Positions 2,188 to 28,350 of a DNA stretch of 64,000 bases are shown here, piece after piece. Location: positions 265,743-329,742 of the forward strand of contig DJLZ01000005.1 of the NCBI GenBank assembly GCA_002436405.1. The letters are read 5' to 3'. The notes beneath the pieces are model-generated. The model saw nothing but the letters and a program-made list of their open reading frames with translations. It had not been told where the DNA came from and did no database searches. The position numbers and the translations under genes are program-made. Within the stretch, counting starts at the first letter, position 1. The number at the start of each line of letters is the position of its first letter. The stretch is from Proteobacteria bacterium UBA6503. GTDB taxonomy: Bacteria > Pseudomonadota > Alphaproteobacteria > UBA1280 > UBA6503.

Positions 2188-3126
2188 TTAAAAGCTAAAG
2201 CTTACCTGATAACCATAATGGTCAGTGTCAGGCGCGCGCAAAGCACTGGCTTTATGCACAGTTGCCTTTTGGGGCAACAGCACAAAGTCAAACGGTGCTA
2301 CGGGCAGCAGCTTAAGGCGTACGCCCAAAAGGCGGAACTCAGCCGGCAAGGTTGCTTTGGGCAACGATGCGAGCTTCAAACCTTGAGCTTTGCTCACTTT
2401 GCGCACATGAACATCCCACGGCACGTTGTTAAAGTCGCCGCCAACCACAATGGGGTAGGGCGTCTTCACATCGCAAATCAGGTCCGTAATCGCATTGCGC
2501 TTATCGGTCCGTTGCGGCGTAAACGGCGCATGAGGGTGCAAGTGAACAAAATGGAAGGTACCATTCGGGTGGTAAACCTCGTAGTGCACCATGCGCCCAT
2601 TGGCATCAGTCTTCACGTGCTTTAGCGGCACTTTTGACAATATAGCCATGCTATAACCCAACACACTGTCGGTAATGCGAACCACATATTGGTGCGGGTA
2701 CATACTTTTCAGCTGTGCAAAGGCCTTGCGCATTTTGTTGTTCACTTCACAAAGGGCGAGAACATCGGCCTTTTGCTTTTTCAGAAAATTCACCTGTGCG
2801 GTCACGTCTTTATTGTAGGTATAGACGTTCAGCAACAGCATATTGATGTTTGGCTTGTTGTTGGGGTTTCCTTTGGGCTTTTCAGCATTCACGAAAACCT
2901 TAAAAGCAGGCCAATGTTTTGCCAAGGGGGCAAGTTTACGGCGCCATTTGGGCTGATGGATACCAGCTTTATAGAGGCACATAAACAAAATACCACGCCA
3001 CGGCGTCATAAGGGCGATTGCGGTGAACAGCAGTAGCCAATAGGGCGAACCTGGCAGCGAGAGCACAAGGCCCAGCAACCAGATAACTGCGCAAACCAAC
3101 GACACACCCAAGCGGATGTAGTGCAT
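2188..3126 (-). CDS. Endonuclease/exonuclease/phosphatase (EEP) family protein with N-terminal TM helices
   Basis: 312 aa with a hydrophobic N-terminus. The C-terminal half has an EEP-like pattern (GGDFN, histidine-rich catalytic region). Confidence 0.5.
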   Translation of the reverse strand: MHYIRLGVSLVCAVIWLLGLVLSLPGSPYWLLLFTAIALMTPWRGILFMCLYKAGIHQPKWRRKLAPLAKHWPAFKVFVNAEKPKGNPNNKPNINMLLLNVYTYNKDVTAQVNFLKKQKADVLALCEVNNKMRKAFAQLKSMYPHQYVVRITDSVLGYSMAILSKVPLKHVKTDANGRMVHYEVYHPNGTFHFVHLHPHAPFTPQRTDKRNAITDLICDVKTPYPIVVGGDFNNVPWDVHVRKVSKAQGLKLASLPKATLPAEFRLLGVRLKLLPVAPFDFVLLPQKATVHKASALRAPDTDHYGYQVSFSF

Positions 3127-3369
3127 AGTTTCACCTTAGGTTAGAGGGAAAGAAAGAAAAGGATATAAGATAGTTGCTTTAAGCCTGAGGATACCTGAAT
3201 CCATGTTAAAGCCCAAGCCTAATCCCGAACATAAATAAAAAATCTTTTAGAATCACGAGCTTGTAAATACAAAGAAAATTAAAAAAAATGCAAAAAAATC
3301 AATTTTTTCCTTTGAAGTAGCGTAAAAACTACCTATCTTTAAAAGTACGAGAAATCTTTTCCGTAACAT

Positions 3370-3417
3370 CTTACTTTCTTTTTCCCTTTTCTTTTTTTTC
3401 CTCCAAGGAGAATACCT
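3370..3417 (+). promoter_or_regulatory. Polypyrimidine (CT-rich) 5' leader with AAGGAG RBS in front of the ClpP-fold gene
   Basis: The sequence cttactttctttttcccttttcttttttttcctccAAGGAG lies 7 nt upstream of the ATG at 3418. A near-identical architecture recurs at 4717-4773. Confidence 0.4.
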
Positions 3418-4524
3418 ATGTTTACTGATAACCTCCCGCAGCCGACGACGCTGGAAGAGGCCGAGAAGGCATTCACCGATGCGGTGAACGCTTACCACAT
3501 CACCATTCCCGATGATTCGCATGGTGGCCGTGGCTTCGCTCTTCCCTCGATCATGTTCAAGCACCGCATCCTGTACCTGCACGGTCCTGTTACCCAGGAA
3601 GCCGTTCAGGCGCTCTGCATGCAGCTGCACTACCTGTGCAGTGAACCGGTGCTCAAGCAGCCGAACCGTTCGCGTCGCATCACGCTGTACGTGAACAGCC
3701 CTGGTGGTCTGGTGGGTGAGGGTCTGACCCTTTTCTACTACCTCCGTCAGGCGGAAGAAATCACCCGTGAACCGGTCGCCACCGTCATCCAGACGATGGG
3801 CGCCTCCATGGGTTCGTTCCTCCCGCAGGCGGCTACGCCTGGTTACCGGCTGATGATGCCGTATTCGCAGATGATGATTCACTCGCTCTCGTACGGTGTA
3901 CAGGGCAAGCGTGAAGATCACACTCGTAGTGTGGGCCAGACCCGCAATATGATGGCTGCGATGTACGAAGTCTACGTCGACAAGATGGCTGAAGCGCGCG
4001 TGCTCTTCGGCGGCAAGGAAGACACCCCGGAACTCCGTGGTGAAATCCTTCGCTGGCTGTTCGAGCAGATGGAAGACGACGATGTTTTCATGTCGCCTCT
4101 CCAGACGCTCGATGCCGATCTGACCGACTTCGTCGTGCACTCCGAGGCCGAGCAGTTCGAGTACTACAAGGCACTCGACTGGTACCACGGTCTGTACAAG
4201 GAAGGCCCGAATCCGGAAGAACCCGGCAAGACGACCCTGATTCGTGCGGAAGCCGATCAGCAGTCTGGCCGTGTGACGCCGTTCGAGCTCAGCGATGCTG
4301 AGAAGGCCCGTGCCCTCGCCGAGATCAAGCGCTTGCGCAAGATCAACCGTGAGAAGACGGTCGCTTTCGAAGGTCGCCGTGCACCGATCGAAGCTGCTCT
4401 GGCTGCTCTCGATACGGTTCGTATCCAGGAAGGCACCGGCACCCGTAAGGGTAACGGTCCGGCCTATGATACGGCTATCGAAGCGTTCGAAGCCGCTCTG
4501 AAGGGTTCGTCCAAGAAGAGCTAA
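3418..4524 (+). CDS. ClpP-fold (S14-like) serine peptidase with about 170-aa C-terminal coiled/acidic extension; compositionally foreign
   Basis: The ClpP core is recognisable: LYVNSPGG..GL (compare INSPGG), a GASMGSF serine motif, and a MMIHSLS histidine motif. The CDS is GC-rich with CTG/CCG/CGT/ACC/ATC-biased codons, unlike the flanking genes. Confidence 0.6.
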   Translation: MFTDNLPQPTTLEEAEKAFTDAVNAYHITIPDDSHGGRGFALPSIMFKHRILYLHGPVTQEAVQALCMQLHYLCSEPVLKQPNRSRRITLYVNSPGGLVGEGLTLFYYLRQAEEITREPVATVIQTMGASMGSFLPQAATPGYRLMMPYSQMMIHSLSYGVQGKREDHTRSVGQTRNMMAAMYEVYVDKMAEARVLFGGKEDTPELRGEILRWLFEQMEDDDVFMSPLQTLDADLTDFVVHSEAEQFEYYKALDWYHGLYKEGPNPEEPGKTTLIRAEADQQSGRVTPFELSDAEKARALAEIKRLRKINREKTVAFEGRRAPIEAALAALDTVRIQEGTGTRKGNGPAYDTAIEAFEAALKGSSKKS

Positions 4525-4538
4525 TAGCGAAAACGGAA

Positions 4539-4569
4539 AGCCGCCCCATTAGGGGCGGCTTTCTTTTTG
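4539..4569 (+). terminator. Rho-independent terminator after the ClpP-fold gene
   Basis: agccgcccc-atta-ggggcggct followed by ttctttttg. Confidence 0.6.
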
Positions 4570-4716
4570 CCTAAATAGGGGGGATTTAAAGGGCTTAACC
4601 TAGTGCGGCATATGCATGGATTTTCGGAATAAATATCGAATTTAATTAAAGTTTTAGCCCAAAAAGGCTTGGTCAATTGGCTTGATTTGGGGTAATGTGT
4701 ATACCAATTGTGTAGA

Positions 4717-4773
4717 TTTTCTTCTTTTTCTTTTTTTCTTTCCTCTTTTTACTTACATGCCTAGGAGTTTCTT
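4717..4773 (+). promoter_or_regulatory. Second polypyrimidine leader with TAGGAG RBS in front of the acidic/vWA gene
   Basis: ttttcttctttttctttttttctttcctctttttacttacatgccTAGGAG, then ATG at 4774. Confidence 0.4.
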
Positions 4774-6564
4774 ATGGCAAATCCCAATCAAGAGGCACTG
4801 AACCAGGTGCGTGCGCTTTTGCGTGCGTATGTTCGGTTTGGCGCCAGTATCATGGTCGACACCGAAGGTGTCGTTCCTGCTGAACTGTACCTTGTGTTGC
4901 AGCAGGTCCTGGGTATCGAACCCGGCCAGCCGCTTCCCAAGGAAATCATGGACGTGCTTCATGCACACGCCAAGTCGCTTGCTCAAGTTGAGTCAAGCCT
5001 TTCCGAAATGGAACGCAAAGAGCTTGAAGCTTTCTGGAACCGCCTGAAGGCGGCCAAAAACCAGAAGCAGCTCGAAGCCGCCGAAGATACGAAAGCCGAT
5101 ATGAGCCCCAATGCTCAGAAGGCTGTCGATCTGCAGCGTCGTCTGCGCCAGAGCATTGCAACGCAATTGCTTGATGCGTGGAAGGCGAAGAATGATCCTG
5201 AAGAGTCCGAAGAGGACCAGCAGGACGAAGGCGGTGATGACGATCAGCACTCCGATGCTCAGGACATGGACGAACCCTCTGAAGACGAAGCCGACGGCCA
5301 AGATGGCGAAGGCGACGACGAAGGGGACGACAAGTCTGACGGCTCCGGCGGCGGCGAAGGTGATGACGATGGCGAAAGCGATGGTCAGGGCCAGGACGGC
5401 GACGGTGAAGGTGAACCTGGCGAAGGTCAGGGGCAACCCGGAGATGGCAAAGGCCAGCCCAGCGATGGGAAGGGTCAGCCTGGTGATGGCAAAGGCGAAC
5501 CTGGCGAAGGCCAAGGTGAAGCCGGCAAGGGTGAAGGTCAGGGGCAGCCCTCCGATGGTGAATACCAGGAGAGCAACGCTGCCGAAGACAAACAGCCCGG
5601 CCATGACGAATGGATGGAACAGCTCCAGAAGGAGCTGGAAGAGCAGGCGCAAGCCGAAGCTGAAGCCGAGGCTGAAGCCGAAGGTGAAGGCGACGGTGAC
5701 GGCGAAGGCGATGGTGAAGGCGATGGTAAGGGTGAAACCGATACCACCGACCCCAACCGTAGCAAGGATGTTGAAGGTGTCTTTGACCTTTCGAACCTTG
5801 TGCCCGACCCGGCAGACGTCAACGCTGCAAAGCAGGCTCTGTCTCGGATGATTGCAAAGGGTCTCGATAACCCCACGCAGCTTCCGCGCTGGAAACTTGG
5901 CGAGTTCGTCAAGCGCCAGACCACGCTTCGTAACCTGAAGGGTGCAAAAAAGCCTACGCTGGAACGGAAAGCGGTGATGTTCATCATCGATAACTCGCCC
6001 AGTATGGCTCACTTGCAGGCTCAGTCGCGCGCCCTTGCGGCCGCACTGTCCGCCACCGGTGGTCCCGCAGGGGCCGACGTTGTGGTTGCCCTCAGCTTTA
6101 ACGGTCACTACAGCGACTCCAAGCCCCTGACTGAGAAAAATCAGGATGGTGCGTGGTTCCTTAACGGGAAGCTGATGGGGCAGTTGCCGAAGCCCAGTAA
6201 GTCCAGCGGTGTTGATGAAAAACACCATGGTAACTGCTGGAAGTGGTTCATCCAAAAAGTCTTGCCCAAGTACAAGGTGAATGTCCATCTGATCGGCATT
6301 TACGGCGACTACGACGGGACCAAGGAATGGTGCTACATCTCGAACGAGATGAAAGGCATTCAGACCCTCTGGTTTAACCCGGAAAACAAGGAGCTGGAAG
6401 GCGTTCTCGAACGCAAAAACCCCAACTTCTCTGAACGTTTGGGTTCCAGCTACGGTTACGTCAAAGGTGACCGTCGCTTTGAGCTTTTCCGAGGCACGTT
6501 CTTCACGCAAGTGGATACTGTCCAGGATATTGCCCAGGCCCTTCGTAAGGTCGCAGGCGTATAA
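4774..6564 (+). CDS. Large acidic low-complexity protein with C-terminal vWA-like domain; compositionally foreign
   Basis: 596 aa. The N-terminus is helical, residues about 140-330 are D/E/G-rich heptad-like repeats (DGKGQPG units, EAEAEA, GDGEGD), and the C-terminal block VMFIIDNSPSM (DxSxS MIDAS-like) ... VVVALSF ... VHLIGIYGD fits a vWA fold. GC and codon usage match the upstream ClpP-fold gene. Confidence 0.5.
   Translation: MANPNQEALNQVRALLRAYVRFGASIMVDTEGVVPAELYLVLQQVLGIEPGQPLPKEIMDVLHAHAKSLAQVESSLSEMERKELEAFWNRLKAAKNQKQLEAAEDTKADMSPNAQKAVDLQRRLRQSIATQLLDAWKAKNDPEESEEDQQDEGGDDDQHSDAQDMDEPSEDEADGQDGEGDDEGDDKSDGSGGGEGDDDGESDGQGQDGDGEGEPGEGQGQPGDGKGQPSDGKGQPGDGKGEPGEGQGEAGKGEGQGQPSDGEYQESNAAEDKQPGHDEWMEQLQKELEEQAQAEAEAEAEAEGEGDGDGEGDGEGDGKGETDTTDPNRSKDVEGVFDLSNLVPDPADVNAAKQALSRMIAKGLDNPTQLPRWKLGEFVKRQTTLRNLKGAKKPTLERKAVMFIIDNSPSMAHLQAQSRALAAALSATGGPAGADVVVALSFNGHYSDSKPLTEKNQDGAWFLNGKLMGQLPKPSKSSGVDEKHHGNCWKWFIQKVLPKYKVNVHLIGIYGDYDGTKEWCYISNEMKGIQTLWFNPENKELEGVLERKNPNFSERLGSSYGYVKGDRRFELFRGTFFTQVDTVQDIAQALRKVAGV
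5408..5563 (+). repeat. Imperfect 21-bp tandem repeats encoding DGKGQPG-type heptads
   Basis: cagcccagcgatgggaagggt / cagcctggtgatggcaaaggc / gaacctggcgaaggccaaggt and related units in tandem. Confidence 0.6.
5653..5736 (+). repeat. 6-bp tandem repeats (gccgaa/gctgaa then ggYgaM) encoding (EA)n and (GD/GE)n
   Basis: Direct reading of the sequence. Confidence 0.6.
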
Positions 6565-6719: not shown

Positions 6720-6795
6720 GCGGGTGTAGCTCAGTTGGTAGAGCGCAACCTTGCCATGGTTGAGGTCGAGAGTTCGAGTCTCTTCACCCGCTCCA
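6720..6795 (+). tRNA. tRNA-Gly (anticodon GCC)
   Basis: GCGGGTG acceptor stem with CACCCGC-T-CCA at the 3' end. The anticodon stem-loop caacc-TTGCCAT-ggttg gives anticodon GCC. The T arm has GTTCGAGTC. Confidence 0.9.
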
Positions 6796-6943: not shown

Positions 6944-9646
6944 ATGTCTAACTGGCTTCGGGTGCCAACCTTACAAGATCCTCGTCCGTATGCTGCATCC
7001 TTGCAGCTTTCTTTCCTTGTGATTGGCATGTACCTATTAGGCTTTAACCGCACATGGGGGCAGGTGCTGTTTATTGTGGGTGCTTGTATTGTGCTCGACT
7101 TTATTCTGCACTTTGTGATTCACCGTAAGCTGCTCTTTCCGTTTAGTGCGCTGCAAACAGGTTTGTCGCTCGCTATTCTAACCAGCTTTGGTTTGGGCTT
7201 ATGGTTGGCGCTGGTGCCTGTGTTTTTATCAATCCTTTCAAAGTATGTGGTCACCTACAAAGGTCGCCATATTTTTAACCCGTCACTGTTTGGTCTTGCC
7301 GCTACCATTTACTTTATGGGCGACCTTATTGCCGTAAGCCCTGCAAAGCAGTGGGATGGCAGCGTAGGGGTGCTAGTTTATATTTTGGCGGGCGCCATTA
7401 TTTTTGTAATGCCTAAGATTAAACGTACGGCGCTTGTGTTGTCGCTATTGGGATTCTTTGGGTTGCAGGTATTGGCCCGTGCATACTGGCTTACGCCTGA
7501 AATTCCGTTAGAGACGATCTTTTACGGCTTGTTCTTCTCGCCAGCGTTTTACTTGTTTGTGTTCTTCTTTTTGACTGACCCTGCCACAACGCCGAATGAC
7601 CCTAAAAAACAAGTGGCCATGACGGCGGCCATTGTTTTGATTGATACGCTATTCCATGCGTTTCAAATTCTATCGAGTGTATTTTACGCGGGCTTTATTT
7701 ACTTTGCGCTTCGTTGGTTATGGCTTGTGGCAAACGACGCCCTGAAAGAGCCTGATCTTAAACACCGCCTTAAACGCCTTGCCTTACCAGTGGCTGGGCC
7801 TGTTGTGGCCATGGCTGTGCTTGTAGGCTTAAGCTACGGGGTGCATGAGGCTGCAAAGGCGCACCTGCCAACCGTACAGGCTAACTTTAAGCTAGAACGC
7901 ATGTATGTAGGCATTGAGGGCCGTAAGGGCGACACCCTTGATCAGATTGACCCCCGTGCAAAACACATTGCTAAATGGCTGCTGGCTGCGGGCGAGGGTG
8001 TCAATGTTGTGGATGTAAACAACGATGGCCTGCTGGATGTATTCTTGACCCAAACGCAAAAGCGTGGGGCTGACCGTGTGCAGCTTTATATTGCTAAGGC
8101 CCCATTTGTGTATGAGCAGTTTGCTTTACCTCAGTTGCAGCGCTACCGTGAAAATGAAAAACAAAACGGAGTGCCTGCCGGTGCTATGTTCTTTGATGCA
8201 GATAACGACGGCGATAAAGACCTGCTGATTCTTGCCCTTTCGGGTAAGCCAATGTTTTTGCAAAATATGCTCACTGAAACGGGTGAGCTTGGCTTTACCG
8301 AAGCACCACTACCTGGTGATGCCGCAGGCCATCAAAATGCCGTTGCCGTTACTGCGGCTGACTTTGATAACAACGGCTACCTAGATGTGGTGTGGAGTAA
8401 TTACTTCCCTAAATACCATGAGGCTTACCCTGGCGCGCAGCGCTTACTGAATATCTTTAACCTACCTGAAGCTGAATATGAGGGCGATAACCGCCCACAG
8501 CATATTTTGTACAACAGCTGGGCTAATGCCACTAACGGTGGCCTAAGCCGTTATATGGCAGGTGGTGCAGGCGGCTTTGAAGATGTGGGCGACCCTTTTA
8601 ACCGCACCACTTGGACGCTAGCACTTGGTGCAGCTGACCTTAACAACGATGGCCTGCAAGATATTTACTTTGCCAATGATAACGGCCCAGACGACATGTT
8701 TATGCAAAAAGCCAGCGGTAAGTTTATCCGCCTTATTGGCCTTAACCGTAGCGGTGTGGGTCGTGATACTTATAAAGGGATGAATGTCTCGTTTGCGGAT
8801 TTTGATAAAAACGGCATGCCCGATATTTATGTTTCAAACATGCATGAACCTACACTTGTTGAAGGCAGCATGCTGTGGCTGAATAATACAAAAGAGGGCG
8901 AGTTTAACGGCAATGCCTTTACAAACTCAGCCAGTTCAAAAGGAACTTGGAACGAAAAGCGCTTTGGTTGGGGCGCTGGCGTGGGGGATTTAAACCTAGA
9001 TGGCCAACCTGATATTGTGCAAGCGAACGGCATGATTGATACAAACTATGACTCACCACTACTGTGCACCAGCTATTGGTATGCCTCAGGCCTACTTACG
9101 GGTGCCGTATCACAAGTATTACCGTATGCCGATAAATGGCCGTCAATGGTGGATAAATGCATGTTTGCCGGTGAAAAGAACCGTGTATACCTTAACGAAG
9201 GTGGTTACTTTGCTGATGTTGCAGATGAAGTAGGTTTTGCAACGCCTAATACAGCACGTGCCATTGCCTTAGCTGACCTTGATAACGATGGCGACCTTGA
9301 CGTTATTGTAGCGCATCCAACAGCTGCCCCAAGCTTTTATAAAAACACCCGTAATGAACCCATGGGGGATTGGCTTGGCGTAAAGCTTGTGGGTAATGGC
9401 CAAACCTGTAACAGCGATGCTGTGGGTACACGTGTGCACCTAACCTATGGCGGTGCAGACCCTGTAACGCTTGAACAGCGTGTATATGCTACGCAAGGAA
9501 TGTCAGCCCAAGGCGACCAGCGCCTACTGTTTGGCCTAAATGGCTACAGCGGCATGGTGAAGCTAAAAGTTGATTGGTGCGGGCAGGGGGCTGATGTAAC
9601 AACGGCCCAAGTTGCCTCGGGCCGTTATACAACTTTAAAGCAGTAG
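6944..9646 (+). CDS. Polytopic membrane protein fused to FG-GAP/VCBS-like Ca-binding repeats and ASPIC/UnbV-like C-terminus (CRTAC1 family-like)
   Basis: 900 aa. The N-terminal roughly 300 aa carry several predicted TM helices. Repeated Dx[ND]xDGxxD motifs follow (VNNDGLLDV, DADNDGDKDL, DFDNNGYLDV, DLNNDGLQDI, DFDKNGMPDI, DLNLDGQPDI, DLDNDGDLDV). The C-terminus has the VGTRVHLTYGG ... Q tail typical of ASPIC/UnbV. Confidence 0.6.
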   Translation: MSNWLRVPTLQDPRPYAASLQLSFLVIGMYLLGFNRTWGQVLFIVGACIVLDFILHFVIHRKLLFPFSALQTGLSLAILTSFGLGLWLALVPVFLSILSKYVVTYKGRHIFNPSLFGLAATIYFMGDLIAVSPAKQWDGSVGVLVYILAGAIIFVMPKIKRTALVLSLLGFFGLQVLARAYWLTPEIPLETIFYGLFFSPAFYLFVFFFLTDPATTPNDPKKQVAMTAAIVLIDTLFHAFQILSSVFYAGFIYFALRWLWLVANDALKEPDLKHRLKRLALPVAGPVVAMAVLVGLSYGVHEAAKAHLPTVQANFKLERMYVGIEGRKGDTLDQIDPRAKHIAKWLLAAGEGVNVVDVNNDGLLDVFLTQTQKRGADRVQLYIAKAPFVYEQFALPQLQRYRENEKQNGVPAGAMFFDADNDGDKDLLILALSGKPMFLQNMLTETGELGFTEAPLPGDAAGHQNAVAVTAADFDNNGYLDVVWSNYFPKYHEAYPGAQRLLNIFNLPEAEYEGDNRPQHILYNSWANATNGGLSRYMAGGAGGFEDVGDPFNRTTWTLALGAADLNNDGLQDIYFANDNGPDDMFMQKASGKFIRLIGLNRSGVGRDTYKGMNVSFADFDKNGMPDIYVSNMHEPTLVEGSMLWLNNTKEGEFNGNAFTNSASSKGTWNEKRFGWGAGVGDLNLDGQPDIVQANGMIDTNYDSPLLCTSYWYASGLLTGAVSQVLPYADKWPSMVDKCMFAGEKNRVYLNEGGYFADVADEVGFATPNTARAIALADLDNDGDLDVIVAHPTAAPSFYKNTRNEPMGDWLGVKLVGNGQTCNSDAVGTRVHLTYGGADPVTLEQRVYATQGMSAQGDQRLLFGLNGYSGMVKLKVDWCGQGADVTTAQVASGRYTTLKQ

Positions 9647-10309
9647 TTATTTCTTCAAGAAAAAGCGTGCAAGCAGCACAAATACCATCGTAATAACCAG
9701 TACAGGAAGCATGTGGAAAATAGCCACGTGCTCTGGCGTGTCGAGGTAGCAGAAGTATGAAGTAAATACAAAAGAAAGTGCTGTTGAAGCTAAAGCCGCT
9801 GAAAGGCCAATAACGTATGGGCGCACCGGAAAACTATCATGCAGCATCACAAACATAAGGACGGTCATTGCTGAAGCGGATGCCGTGAGCACGCTAGCAC
9901 AACCAACGTGGCCTGAGTATGCCTCTTTTAGAAGGGCTTCGGCCGAAATATCGTACACTGTGTAGCCAAGTGAAATAAACCAAAACACAAGTGCGCCGTA
10001 GCACATGGCTGCCCAAATACGGTGTTTTGCTGGGCTATCAGGGATACCCAGTTTAAAGCCACTATAGGCACATACAGCAGACATAAAGAGCAATACTACT
10101 GACTTTACAAGGAACACACCTTCGTAAAGTTTATTGTCTTCAGGGCGCACCCCAAGCAGTAGGATAATAAGGCTAATCAGAATAACTGAGGCGACAAACC
10201 AAATAGCCATGTTTTTACAAGGGCGCTTGCACTTTACAGGCTTAAGGCCATCGCACATAGCTGCGATGATAGAATCAGTCTTTTGTTGCTTTGTATCGTG
10301 TTTCGTCAT
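9647..10309 (-). CDS. nrsF: DUF1109-family membrane anti-sigma factor (NrsF-like)
   Basis: 220 aa. The N-terminal TDSIIAAMCDGLKPV is followed by six hydrophobic segments. It lies immediately downstream of, and is translationally coupled to, the ECF sigma gene, with a 1-nt gap. Confidence 0.6.
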   Translation of the reverse strand: MTKHDTKQQKTDSIIAAMCDGLKPVKCKRPCKNMAIWFVASVILISLIILLLGVRPEDNKLYEGVFLVKSVVLLFMSAVCAYSGFKLGIPDSPAKHRIWAAMCYGALVFWFISLGYTVYDISAEALLKEAYSGHVGCASVLTASASAMTVLMFVMLHDSFPVRPYVIGLSAALASTALSFVFTSYFCYLDTPEHVAIFHMLPVLVITMVFVLLARFFLKK

Positions 10310-10310
10310 G

Positions 10311-10859
10311 TTATTGGCGTTCCAAAAATGTCTTCAACGTTTTATAGGCGCGGTGCGCAGCTACTTTAACTGTGGTTGGTTTCATACCCATCACTTTGCC
10401 AGCTTCGTCCGCTGTTAAACCATGTAGCTTCATCAGAATAACAGCCTGGCGAGGCTTTTCAGGAAGCTGCGCAAGAGCATTCATAAGGTCGTGCCTATCA
10501 AGCGCTTGCATTTGTTTATTCGCATCGTCTTGGAAAAAGGTTTCAATGTCTTCACCGGTTGAAAGCTCATCTTCTTTATTGCGGCCAACCTTACGGAAGG
10601 CATCAATGGTCTTATAGCGAATAATCGCATTAAACCAAGGCATGAAGGGCTTTGATGAATCATAGGTATGGCGGGCGTTGTGAATCCCGAAAAGAACTTC
10701 CTGAACGATATCTTCTACCAAAGCAGGGTCGTACACTTTGCTTCGTACAAACTTGGTAGCAACAAGGCGCATTTCGTTTAGCAGCTTATTATAAGCGGTG
10801 CTATTACCGTTTTGCGCTTTGACCATAAGGTCCTGCCATTGGTCAGTATTGGTGGCCAT
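10311..10859 (-). CDS. sigF: ECF-type RNA polymerase sigma-70 factor (SigF-like)
   Basis: 182 aa with sigma-70 region 2 (VQEVLFGIHNARHTYD) and region 4 (LTADEAGKVMGMKPTTVKVAAHRA). Confidence 0.75.
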   Translation of the reverse strand: MATNTDQWQDLMVKAQNGNSTAYNKLLNEMRLVATKFVRSKVYDPALVEDIVQEVLFGIHNARHTYDSSKPFMPWFNAIIRYKTIDAFRKVGRNKEDELSTGEDIETFFQDDANKQMQALDRHDLMNALAQLPEKPRQAVILMKLHGLTADEAGKVMGMKPTTVKVAAHRAYKTLKTFLERQ

Positions 10860-10940: not shown

Positions 10941-11016
10941 TGGCTCCGATGGCAGGACTCGAACCTGCGACCCAATGATTAACAGTCATTTGCTCTACCA
11001 ACTGAGCTACATCGGA
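10941..11016 (-). tRNA. tRNA-Asn (anticodon GTT)
   Basis: The reverse complement reads TCCGATGTAGCTCAGTTGGTAGAGC...AATGACTGTTAATCATT...GGTTCGAGTCC...CATCGGAGCCA. The anticodon loop CTGTTAA gives GTT. Confidence 0.85.
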
Positions 11017-11118
11017 ATAACTAATAACCATTCTATGCCATTATTTAACCTGAAAGCCTAGCAAAAAATGACTCTGTGCTAAAAACTTGGGCAAAAAGTG
11101 CGTATATGGTTATTTAAG

Positions 11119-11195
11119 TGGAGGCGGAGACGGGATTCGAACCCGTGAATGACGGTTTTGCAAACCGCAGCGTTAGACCTCTTCGCCACCCCGCC
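11119..11195 (-). tRNA. tRNA-Cys (anticodon GCA)
   Basis: The reverse complement reads GGCGGGGTGGCGAAGAGGTCTAACGC-TGCGGTTTGCAAAACCGT-...GGGTTCGAATCCC...CCGCCTCCA. The anticodon loop TTGCAAA gives GCA. The exact ends are within about 1 nt. Confidence 0.8.
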
Positions 11196-27344: not shown

Positions 27345-27554
27345 ATGTTTGATATTGGTCTCACCGAAGTTGCGTTAATCTTGCTCGTGGCAATTTTTGC
27401 CATCGGGCCTGAACGCATGCCTGAGGTTGCTCGTTTTTTGGTTAAAGCCAAGCGCATGCTAAACAAACTTACCCTTGATGTTAAAAGCCTTTGGGACGGT
27501 ATTGACCTGCCTGAAGACAACGTAAAAGACGTTAAGCATGACAGCAAAAAATAA
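27345..27554 (+). CDS. tatB: TatB (short form)
   Basis: 69 aa MFDIGLTEVALILLVAIFAIGPERMPE. It is the second TatA-family gene directly before tatC. Confidence 0.7.
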   Translation: MFDIGLTEVALILLVAIFAIGPERMPEVARFLVKAKRMLNKLTLDVKSLWDGIDLPEDNVKDVKHDSKK

Positions 27555-28350
27555 AACCCAAACCTCAGCAAAGCCTATTCAGGATGCCACGCAAGATACG
27601 GCACCTTTGGTTGAACACTTAAAAGAGCTGCGCACCCGCCTGATGATTGGCATTGGCGCCGTATTCGTAGGGTTTTTGGTGTGCTATGGCTTTAAGGAGG
27701 CTTTGTTTGTTTGGCTTACGGCACCGCTGTTTGAAAACTATGGCCATCAAATGGTGTTTACCGCACCGCACGAACTTTTCTTTACATACCTTAAGCTTTG
27801 TTTCCTTGGTGGGTTCTTTATTGGGATGCCATTCTTATTTGATCAAATCTGGCGTTTTGTGGCCCCGGGTCTGTACGCTGAAGAAAAGAAGGTTGTTCTA
27901 CCATTCTTACTAGCCACTCCAATTTTGTTTTACGCAGGTGGCTTGTTTTCATACTTCGTTATTATGCCGCTGGCGATTGAGTTCTTTTTTGGTTTTGCAA
28001 ACGAAGCCATTATGCCGCTGCCTTCAGCGCGTGAGTACTTAAGCTTTTTCATTAAGCTAACCTTTGGTTTTGGCTTGGCGTTTGAGTTGCCAGTTCTACT
28101 GCTTATCTTAGCCAAAGTAGGGCTTGTGAATGCTGACCGTTTGGTGTGGTTCCGCCGTTATAGCTGGTTGTGTATTCTTATCCTATCTGCGGTGCTGACA
28201 CCGCCTGATCCATTGTCGCAAGTGCTATTGGCACTGCCGATGGTCTTCCTTTACGAGGTTTCAATCTTCCTTATTCGCCGCAGTGAAAAGAAAAGCGAGA
28301 AGAAGGGCGAAAAGAAAGCCTCTAAAGCTTCTTCTAAATCATCCAAATAA
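27538..28350 (+). CDS. tatC: TatC
   Basis: 270 aa with a 6-TM TatC pattern and a lysine-rich C-terminal tail. Confidence 0.85.
   Translation: MTAKNKTQTSAKPIQDATQDTAPLVEHLKELRTRLMIGIGAVFVGFLVCYGFKEALFVWLTAPLFENYGHQMVFTAPHELFFTYLKLCFLGGFFIGMPFLFDQIWRFVAPGLYAEEKKVVLPFLLATPILFYAGGLFSYFVIMPLAIEFFFGFANEAIMPLPSAREYLSFFIKLTFGFGLAFELPVLLLILAKVGLVNADRLVWFRRYSWLCILILSAVLTPPDPLSQVLLALPMVFLYEVSIFLIRRSEKKSEKKGEKKASKASSKSSK

Follow-up and report, generated by a model that had tools for sequence, protein, structure and literature searches.

ClpP is among the best-studied self-compartmentalised proteases and a drug target, and its regulation hinges on an apical cleft and on a switch between extended and compact states. 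The active extended tetradecamer is stabilised by the HQP motif, the QXT motif and an Arg oligomerisation sensor (PMC9035409). Natural variants that rewire this switch are informative, among them Pseudomonas aeruginosa ClpP2 (PaClpP2), Mycobacterium tuberculosis ClpP1P2 and the C-terminal extension of human CLPP. On its own, PaClpP2 forms an inactive heptamer, and its expression is conditional (PMC13056064). The C-terminal residues of PaClpP2 occupy the cleft and thereby keep ClpX out (PMC12451819), and ClpX in P. aeruginosa binds the ClpP1 ring only (PMC12451819, PMC13056064). Here we describe a gene for a 368-residue ClpP-like protein in a 64,000-nucleotide stretch of contig DJLZ01000005.1 (positions 265,743 to 329,742) from Proteobacteria bacterium UBA6503, the whole of which is hereafter called the window. 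In all likelihood, the gene encodes a chromosomal ClpP paralogue that is active, is not a phage protein and bears a novel apical domain. Neither the fold nor the chemistry is new, and atypical second ClpPs are a known theme. The combination of a 126-residue orphan apical domain, a wholesale remodelled cleft, the loss of the HQP, QXT and Arg sensor elements and an intact catalytic triad was not found in the families, structures and literature searched.

An open reading frame (ORF) check confirmed an ATG-started frame of 368 codons on the plus strand (3418-4524), with exactly the ends given in an earlier note made from the DNA letters. The deposited protein MBA43701.1 derives from a Tara Oceans mesopelagic metagenome-assembled genome (MAG), in which the window belongs to a contig of 769 kb. 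The ClpP fold, previously recognised by eye, was borne out by three approaches. The Pfam profile CLP_protease (PF00574) matches residues 41-189 at 80.4 bits against a cut-off of 20.2 (E=2e-22), and a profile of the family matches ClpP structures in PDB at E~1e-24. Foldseek comparison of an AlphaFold2 (AF2) model with PDB retrieved bacterial and human ClpPs at E~3e-11, with target template modelling (TM) scores of 0.66-0.79. This similarity is far above chance. The full-length model, built from an eight-sequence alignment, has a predicted local distance difference test (pLDDT) score of 74.8 and a predicted TM score (pTM) of 0.74. Cellular ClpP models of NCBIfam match from residue 28 onward and include the axial-loop region. 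The ClpP domain spans about residues 28-242, wider than the limits of 55-200 first proposed. The housekeeping equivalog models are missed (TIGR00493, 70.6 bits versus a cut-off of 308.6; PRK00277, 80.8 versus 249), and membership in SppA/S49 failed (TIGR00706, 19.6 bits versus 155.45).

When 5.8 billion proteins are searched with the single sequence and with a profile, a family of 11 clusters emerges, with members of 366-429 residues that are 42-99% identical to the query; three of them were added by the profile search only. Family scores extend down to 352 bits, and the next matches, at 86 bits, are where ordinary ClpPs of about 200 residues start. The family occurs in one of 185,579 species-representative genomes and on two further JGI metagenome contigs. 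Pattern scans of genomes and metagenomes for distant tailed relatives otherwise retrieved canonical ClpPs only.

The active site is complete. All three motifs assigned by eye are correct: YVNSPGG contains the oxyanion-hole residue Gly97, GASMGS contains Ser130 and MMIH contains His155. The third triad residue, which the earlier note had left to be located, is Asp222 in MEDDDVFMS, equivalent to Asp171 of Escherichia coli ClpP. These four residues and Met131 of the oxyanion hole are invariant in all eight aligned family members. The ClpP domain opens with an axial-loop segment, YHITIPDDSHGGRGFALPSIMFK, which is colinear with its E. coli counterpart and carries the motif PDDxHGGRG, highly conserved in the family. 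The ratio of nonsynonymous to synonymous substitution rates (dN/dS) of the core is 0.09-0.18, indicative of strong purifying selection. Residues 1-27 form a leader that shows indels of up to 25 residues in the family alignment and pLDDT values below 50 in the model, and its end coincides in the alignment with the start of mature E. coli ClpP. These features are compatible with a propeptide, and the N-terminal 24-27 residues may be removed by processing.

The C-terminal region following the peptidase domain comprises 126 residues (243-368). An extension of about 170 residues had been estimated earlier; the remaining length beyond an ordinary ClpP is accounted for by the leader and three internal insertions. 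The extension had also been described as helical, charged, acidic and coiled. A long structured extension is indeed present, and it is both helical and charged, but it is neither acidic nor a plain coiled coil: 33% of its residues are charged with a net neutral balance (21 acidic, 21 basic, isoelectric point 6.9), and the model contains about 60% helix together with a beta-hairpin. This tail is a real, functional domain, since its dN/dS of 0.14-0.33 reflects purifying selection (versus 0.09-0.18 for the core) and its pLDDT is 85-95 over most of its length in both the full-length and the isolated AF2 models. Among the closer family members, the tail is 54-62% identical. A tail-only search of 1.84 billion representative proteins returned no true relative outside the family, and the tail matches no Pfam family, no PDB sequence and no PHROG. 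A metagenomic eukaryote-like kinase of 866 residues (P0074) was the only non-family match to the tail (E=1.6e-8). It was judged spurious; the protein is compositionally biased and contains five tandem repeats of about 80 residues, over which the score is summed.

The surface that receives the unfoldase in ClpP is extensively rebuilt. At the level of sequence, we compared 16 positions of the hydrophobic E. coli cleft that binds acyldepsipeptides (ADEP) and the IGF or LGF loops of ClpX and ClpA (bioRxiv 10.1101/2023.03.01.530711). Only one of the 16 residues is kept in the window protein (Tyr62, here Tyr91), whereas 12 of 16 are kept in the canonical ClpP of a related locus (L002). Four replacements, L48H, F49Y, E51C and F82I, are invariant in the family. 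M92 is replaced by Gln in all members but one, which has Lys, and R22 by Ile, Met or Leu. In window numbering, the replacements include His71, Tyr72, Cys74, Ile115 and Gln125. The invariance of the replacements indicates a conserved yet different putative binding surface at the cleft. The ring-stabilising elements are altered as well. HQP is replaced by H[S/A]L in the family, the QXT region changes from QGQATD to QGKR with a three-residue deletion, and the position of the Arg170 oligomerisation sensor varies among Asp, Glu, Lys, Ala and Arg.

The window is ordinary chromosome, with fabF, mltG, gmk, valS, serS, uvrA, recG, mfd, spoT and secD, a gyrA/parC-type gene, a TolC-like gene and an extracytoplasmic function (ECF) sigma/NrsF pair. 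The neighbours of the ClpP-like gene are fabF, mltG, gmk, a gene of the endonuclease/exonuclease/phosphatase (EEP) family, a tRNA-Gly gene and a gene for an FG-GAP protein. A shared gene order holds across lineages that are 42-72% identical: mltG-gmk upstream, usually the divergent EEP gene, the ClpP-like gene, and then genes for PfkB, a nucleoside deoxyribosyltransferase and a HAD hydrolase. The window, L002-L006, L007/L008, L009/L010 and L013 all have the EEP gene head-to-head with the ClpP-like one, and L001 lacks it; a functional link between the two genes is unproven. PADLOC returned no defence-system match for the protease or its three neighbours.

As noted earlier, the ClpP-like gene stands apart from tig, clpX and lon, none of which occurs within the 64-kb window. 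Three relatives (L002, L006 and L013) have a canonical tig-clpP-clpX-lon cluster 5-7 kb downstream of the long paralogue, with lon seen in L002 only and the L013 contig stopping inside the gene after clpP. The canonical ClpP of these related genomes is 70% identical to E. coli ClpP and 30-32% identical to the long paralogue. In coexisting with a canonical ClpP in these relatives, the long paralogue resembles atypical second ClpPs such as PaClpP2 and those of the ClpP1P2 type in M. tuberculosis and Listeria. The earlier note had considered that a canonical clpP-clpX operon elsewhere might reveal this gene as a simple recent duplicate lacking the extension. Such an operon does exist in relatives, but the low identity and the constant presence of the tail do not fit a recent duplicate. 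Given the shared gene order, the 30-32% identity and the coexisting canonical cluster, we conclude that this additional ClpP paralogue is old and has been inherited vertically, and that it neither replaces the canonical gene nor arose by recent duplication.

The lineages with 429-residue members (L002 7183-18323; L006; L013 4128-12974) show further features. The closeness of the paralogue to the tig-clpP-clpX cluster is compatible with an ancient local clpP duplication. Two tandem EEP-family paralogues and a major facilitator superfamily (MFS) transporter gene lie on the other side of the paralogue, and a HipBA toxin-antitoxin pair is located nearby in L002.

The upstream region contains a promoter-like element. 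The pattern TTGAA-N15-16-CYTATNT has a single match on both strands of the window (3311-3338), against 0.15 expected. Upstream of the orthologous genes of L001, L007/L008 and L014, the spacer has diverged, whereas both boxes and the next 12 nt are invariant. The element fits the Sinorhizobium meliloti RpoH1/RpoH2 consensus CTTGAA/CTTGCC-N15-16-CCTATAT/CCTATCT (quoted in PMC4843759). The uniqueness of the match, the conserved boxes and the fit to the Sinorhizobium consensus together point to heat-shock-type control, probably by a sigma-32-type factor, in the subclade of 368- and 376-residue members. The 408- to 429-residue lineages share another upstream block, TTTTTTTGT[GT]G-N18-20-[GA]GTAT[CA][AG]T, with an inverted repeat GGCG...CGCC and without RpoH-like boxes. 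Regulation of the paralogue may thus differ between subclades.

Between the promoter-like element and the Shine-Dalgarno (SD) sequence lies a pyrimidine-rich (CU-rich) leader of 40 nt. Tracts with at least 22 pyrimidines in 24 nt occur four times in the window, three of them as the leaders of the EEP, ClpP-like and acidic-protein genes, and a comparable tract precedes the ClpP-like orthologues in L001, L007, L009, L011, L014 and L015. This distribution suggests that the CU leaders mark a small post-transcriptional regulon, whose basis could be an S1-type translational enhancer, an RNA-binding protein, small RNA targeting or a fourU-like thermometer. The 5' leader shows no significant RNA structure (z=-0.38) and no Rfam match. 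A structured-RNA leader, such as a thermometer or riboswitch, is accordingly unsupported; a 7-bp hairpin sequestering the SD is possible, is expected of any CU tract beside a purine-rich SD, and is not claimed. At the other end, the gene is followed by an intrinsic terminator, and it is therefore monocistronic.

Considering these findings, we tentatively favour an atypical, stress-induced ClpP that carries its own tail on the apical face and is partnered with housekeeping ClpP; taken as a whole, the heterocomplex included, this statement falls a little short of an even chance. The protein would form heptameric rings of the ClpP type that enclose the active sites. The tail begins three residues past the equivalent of E. 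coli Leu189, a cleft residue, which would make it emerge on the apical face, and seven tail domains would be located where ClpX or ClpA would dock. The rebuilt cleft would most likely bind the protein's own tail instead of an IGF loop, and docking of ClpX or ClpA would be blocked. With its altered HQP, QXT and Arg170 elements, the ring would probably be inactive alone and need a partner. The most likely partner would be the housekeeping ClpP ring, in a ClpP7:ClpP-like7 hetero-tetradecamer. An unfoldase would then cap the housekeeping side only, giving a singly capped protease as in P. aeruginosa ClpP1-ClpP2. Expression would probably be induced by stress through the RpoH-type promoter in the 368/376-residue subclade.

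Several points weigh against this partnered assembly. The contact between tail and cleft is inferred from geometry only, and the quality of the full-length model is medium (eight aligned sequences, pLDDT 74.8). Changes in the handle and sensor might just as well keep the ring from stacking on a canonical one. Within the 64 kb covered, no canonical ClpP is seen for the window's own genome. Members of 408 to 429 residues and the 373-residue L009 member have no RpoH-type motif upstream, and the sequences scanned for it include no heat-shock gene as a positive control.

Alternatively, in line with the stand-alone protease that the earlier note gave as a second option, the protein may be a stand-alone, ATPase-independent homo-oligomer, in which the seven tails of each ring serve as a built-in cap, gate or substrate receptor. 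The monocistronic gene with no AAA+ gene nearby, its distance from clpP and clpX in the window lineage, the remodelled docking cleft and the large, folded, conserved tail are all consistent with such an enzyme. However, the HQP, QXT and Arg sensor elements are lost, and a similar loss in other atypical ClpPs accompanies dependence on a partner ring (PMC13056064, PMC9035409). Moreover, the ClpP-type axial loop (PDDxHGGRG), which contacts the unfoldase in ClpP, is retained and highly conserved. We regard this arrangement as rather unlikely. Doubtful to a greater degree is a self-capped form, in which a heat-inducible ring bears its seven tails as a crown over the axial pore, replacing the AAA+ unfoldase as gate and substrate receptor. 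If true, it would be an ATP-independent self-compartmentalised protease of new architecture in a small clade of pelagic marine bacteria.

ClpR-type subunits characteristically lack the triad. A non-proteolytic or regulatory subunit of this kind, or a ClpP-fold enzyme with another chemistry or oligomeric state whose fold is a scaffold for the tail, would be in keeping with the strong divergence of the protein (26-32% identity to ClpP, with all NCBIfam equivalog cut-offs widely missed) and with its altered ring-ring interface motifs. The invariance of Ser, His, Asp and both oxyanion residues in all members compared and the strong constraint on the core (dN/dS 0.09-0.18) argue against it, making this explanation very improbable.

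The leading idea of the earlier note was a phage protease-scaffold fusion. On this reading, a ClpP-like prohead protease, either carried by a prophage or domesticated, would be joined to a scaffolding domain. The PHROGs head-maturation family phrog_94 does match the core, and the core only (77.8 bits, residues 85-190; PHROGs have no curated cut-off), and the helical, charged character of the tail is shared with scaffolding domains. In contrast, the 2.9 million IMG/VR contigs contain no relative, and among 120 phage records matched by tblastn none covers more than 59% of the protein and none covers the tail. The closest relatives of the protein are ClpPs proper and not phage proteases. The best phage matches are ordinary jumbo-phage ClpPs of about 200 residues, below 30% identity, over query residues 28-245, whereas the matches to genuine capsid maturation proteases start only at about residue 80 (E 1e-4 to 1e-5) and the ClpP N-terminal axial-loop region is present here. 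The NCBIfam models for such proteases score far below their cut-offs (NF045542, 48 bits versus 120; NF045540, 41 versus 475), and the housekeeping synteny (fabF-mltG-gmk ... PfkB) recurs in every lineage, with capsid, portal and terminase genes not found nearby. The tail has no fold match in BFVD at E<=1e-3, although scaffolding proteins are poorly conserved and the lack of a BFVD or PHROG match to the tail is weak evidence. On synteny, IMG/VR, phage records, NCBIfam scores and the tail fold search, the phage origin is rejected as scarcely credible.

Table 1. Features of the ClpP-like locus and of related loci (positions refer to the window unless a related locus is named).
Feature	Position	Strand	Basis or remark
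Coding sequence (CDS), 368-aa ClpP-like protein	3418..4524	+	MBA43701.1, deposited as 'hypothetical protein', Magnetococcales bacterium MAG
Promoter-like element TTTGAA-N15-CCTATCT (RpoH/sigma-32 type)	3311..3338	+	about 80 nt upstream of start codon
CU-rich (polypyrimidine) 5' leader, 40 nt	3367..3406	+	directly upstream of Shine-Dalgarno
Shine-Dalgarno AAGGAG	3405..3410	+	7 nt 5' of ATG, from sequence
N-terminal leader, residues 1-27	3418..3498	+	length varies among lineages; possible propeptide
ClpP (S14) peptidase domain, residues 28-242	3499..4143	+	Pfam, NCBIfam, PDB profile search, Foldseek, residue mapping to E. coli ClpP
Ser130, triad	3805-3807	+	aligned to E. coli ClpP Ser97
His155, triad	3880-3882	+	aligned to E. 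coli ClpP His122
Asp222, triad	4081-4083	+	aligned to E. coli ClpP Asp171
Gly97, oxyanion hole			aligned to E. coli ClpP Gly68
Met131, oxyanion hole			aligned to E. coli ClpP Met98
Family-specific C-terminal domain, residues 243-368	4144..4521	+	helix, beta-hairpin, three long helices
Intrinsic terminator, 13-bp stem, 9 G-C pairs, then T-run	4535..4564	+	11 nt past stop codon
Divergent membrane-anchored EEP gene	2188..3126	-	Pfam PF03372; conserved neighbour
CU-rich leader of EEP gene	3138-3170	-	
CU-rich leader of acidic-protein gene	4715-4756	+	
Fourth CU-rich tract	28282-28318	-	antisense within ORF 27538-28350
CU-rich tract in relative	L001 257-307	-	orthologous leader
CU-rich tract in relative	L002 6876-6914	-	orthologous leader
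Alternative upstream block	L002 7000-7183, L013 3950-4128, L015 400-568, L011 200-326		
596-aa acidic protein	4774-6564	+	downstream of ClpP-like gene; related entry L018 8848-10969

The gene downstream of the terminator encodes an acidic protein, the cleavage of which by the ClpP-like protease had been put forward earlier. An operon or substrate link between the two was rejected: the 13-bp-stem terminator lies in between, and in the loci of all other lineages the acidic gene stands next to no other family member. The proposal thus finds no genomic support. The central 200 residues of the acidic protein are of low complexity, rich in Asp, Glu and Gly (72 acidic residues and 46 Gly). The C-terminal domain of about 260 residues contains a DxSxS motif (VMFIIDNSPSM) like that of von Willebrand factor A (vWA) domains, with a weak match to Pfam VWA_2 (E=0.095). 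The single detectable homologue outside its cluster, P0080 (322 residues, 60% identical), is encoded directly downstream of a 343-residue AAA ATPase, an arrangement resembling MoxR-vWA-type pairs. In the window lineage, the acidic protein, the tRNA-Gly and the FG-GAP protein stand where relatives have PfkB. The segment 4001-6000 has a GC content of 55.8% versus about 47% elsewhere, and the acidic gene abuts the tRNA-Gly gene (6720-6795). The GC content, the adjacent tRNA-Gly gene and the occupied PfkB position therefore suggest that the acidic gene is a lineage-specific insertion.

The FG-GAP protein (900 residues, 6944-9646, plus strand) is an unusual fusion, in which an N-terminal multi-pass membrane region is followed by FG-GAP repeats and a C-terminal ASPIC/UnbV domain; its residues 24-124 show weak similarity to the NqrB/RnfD family. 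Beyond it, the minus strand (9647-10859) encodes an ECF sigma factor (182 residues) and, after it, a membrane anti-sigma factor of the NrsF family (220 residues), and the pair is flanked by tRNA-Asn and tRNA-Cys genes (10941-11195, minus strand).

Because the family is rare and confined to uncultured marine bacteria, its practical impact is limited. Among the bacterial ClpPs with a large apical domain of their own, it would nevertheless be the most extreme found here. Should the tail plug the ATPase-binding site or take its place, the family would constitute a natural experiment on gating and allosteric activation.

Compared with known systems, the protein shares its core (about residues 80-190) with the phage head maturation proteases and their fusions (NF045542, NF045540, phrog_94), which often carry long C-terminal fusions. 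Unlike the window protein, those proteases lack the ClpP N-terminal segment, and here the gene lies in a chromosomal housekeeping context with scores below the NCBIfam cut-offs. The jumbo-phage ClpPs of Agrobacterium phage Atu_ph07 and Pseudomonas phage PA5oct resemble it in having a full ClpP domain including the N-terminal loop region, but they are phage-encoded, about 200 residues long, less than 30% identical and devoid of the tail domain. Human mitochondrial CLPP provides the best PDB sequence matches (E~2e-24) and has a C-terminal extension of 28 residues proposed to modulate ClpX binding. This short extension has been described as flexible, and the human protein has a canonical HQP motif and docking cleft.

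With housekeeping ClpP (E. coli ClpP; MEROPS S14; TIGR00493), the protein has in common the fold, the triad, the oxyanion Gly and Met, the colinear axial-loop segment and the handle region. It differs in its identity of 26-32%, its length of 368 versus about 200 residues, the 126-residue C-terminal domain and the three internal insertions. In addition, 15 of 16 cleft residues are changed, the HQP, QXT and Arg sensor elements are not conserved, and the gene lies outside the tig-clpP-clpX operon. PaClpP2 is likewise an extra ClpP beside a canonical one, with an altered ATPase cleft, C-terminal sequence at the cleft and, in its case, conditional expression. This likeness is an analogy and implies no specific sequence relationship between the two proteins. 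The C-terminal element of PaClpP2 comprises about 13 residues forming one helical turn, whereas the protein described here carries a folded domain of 126 residues.

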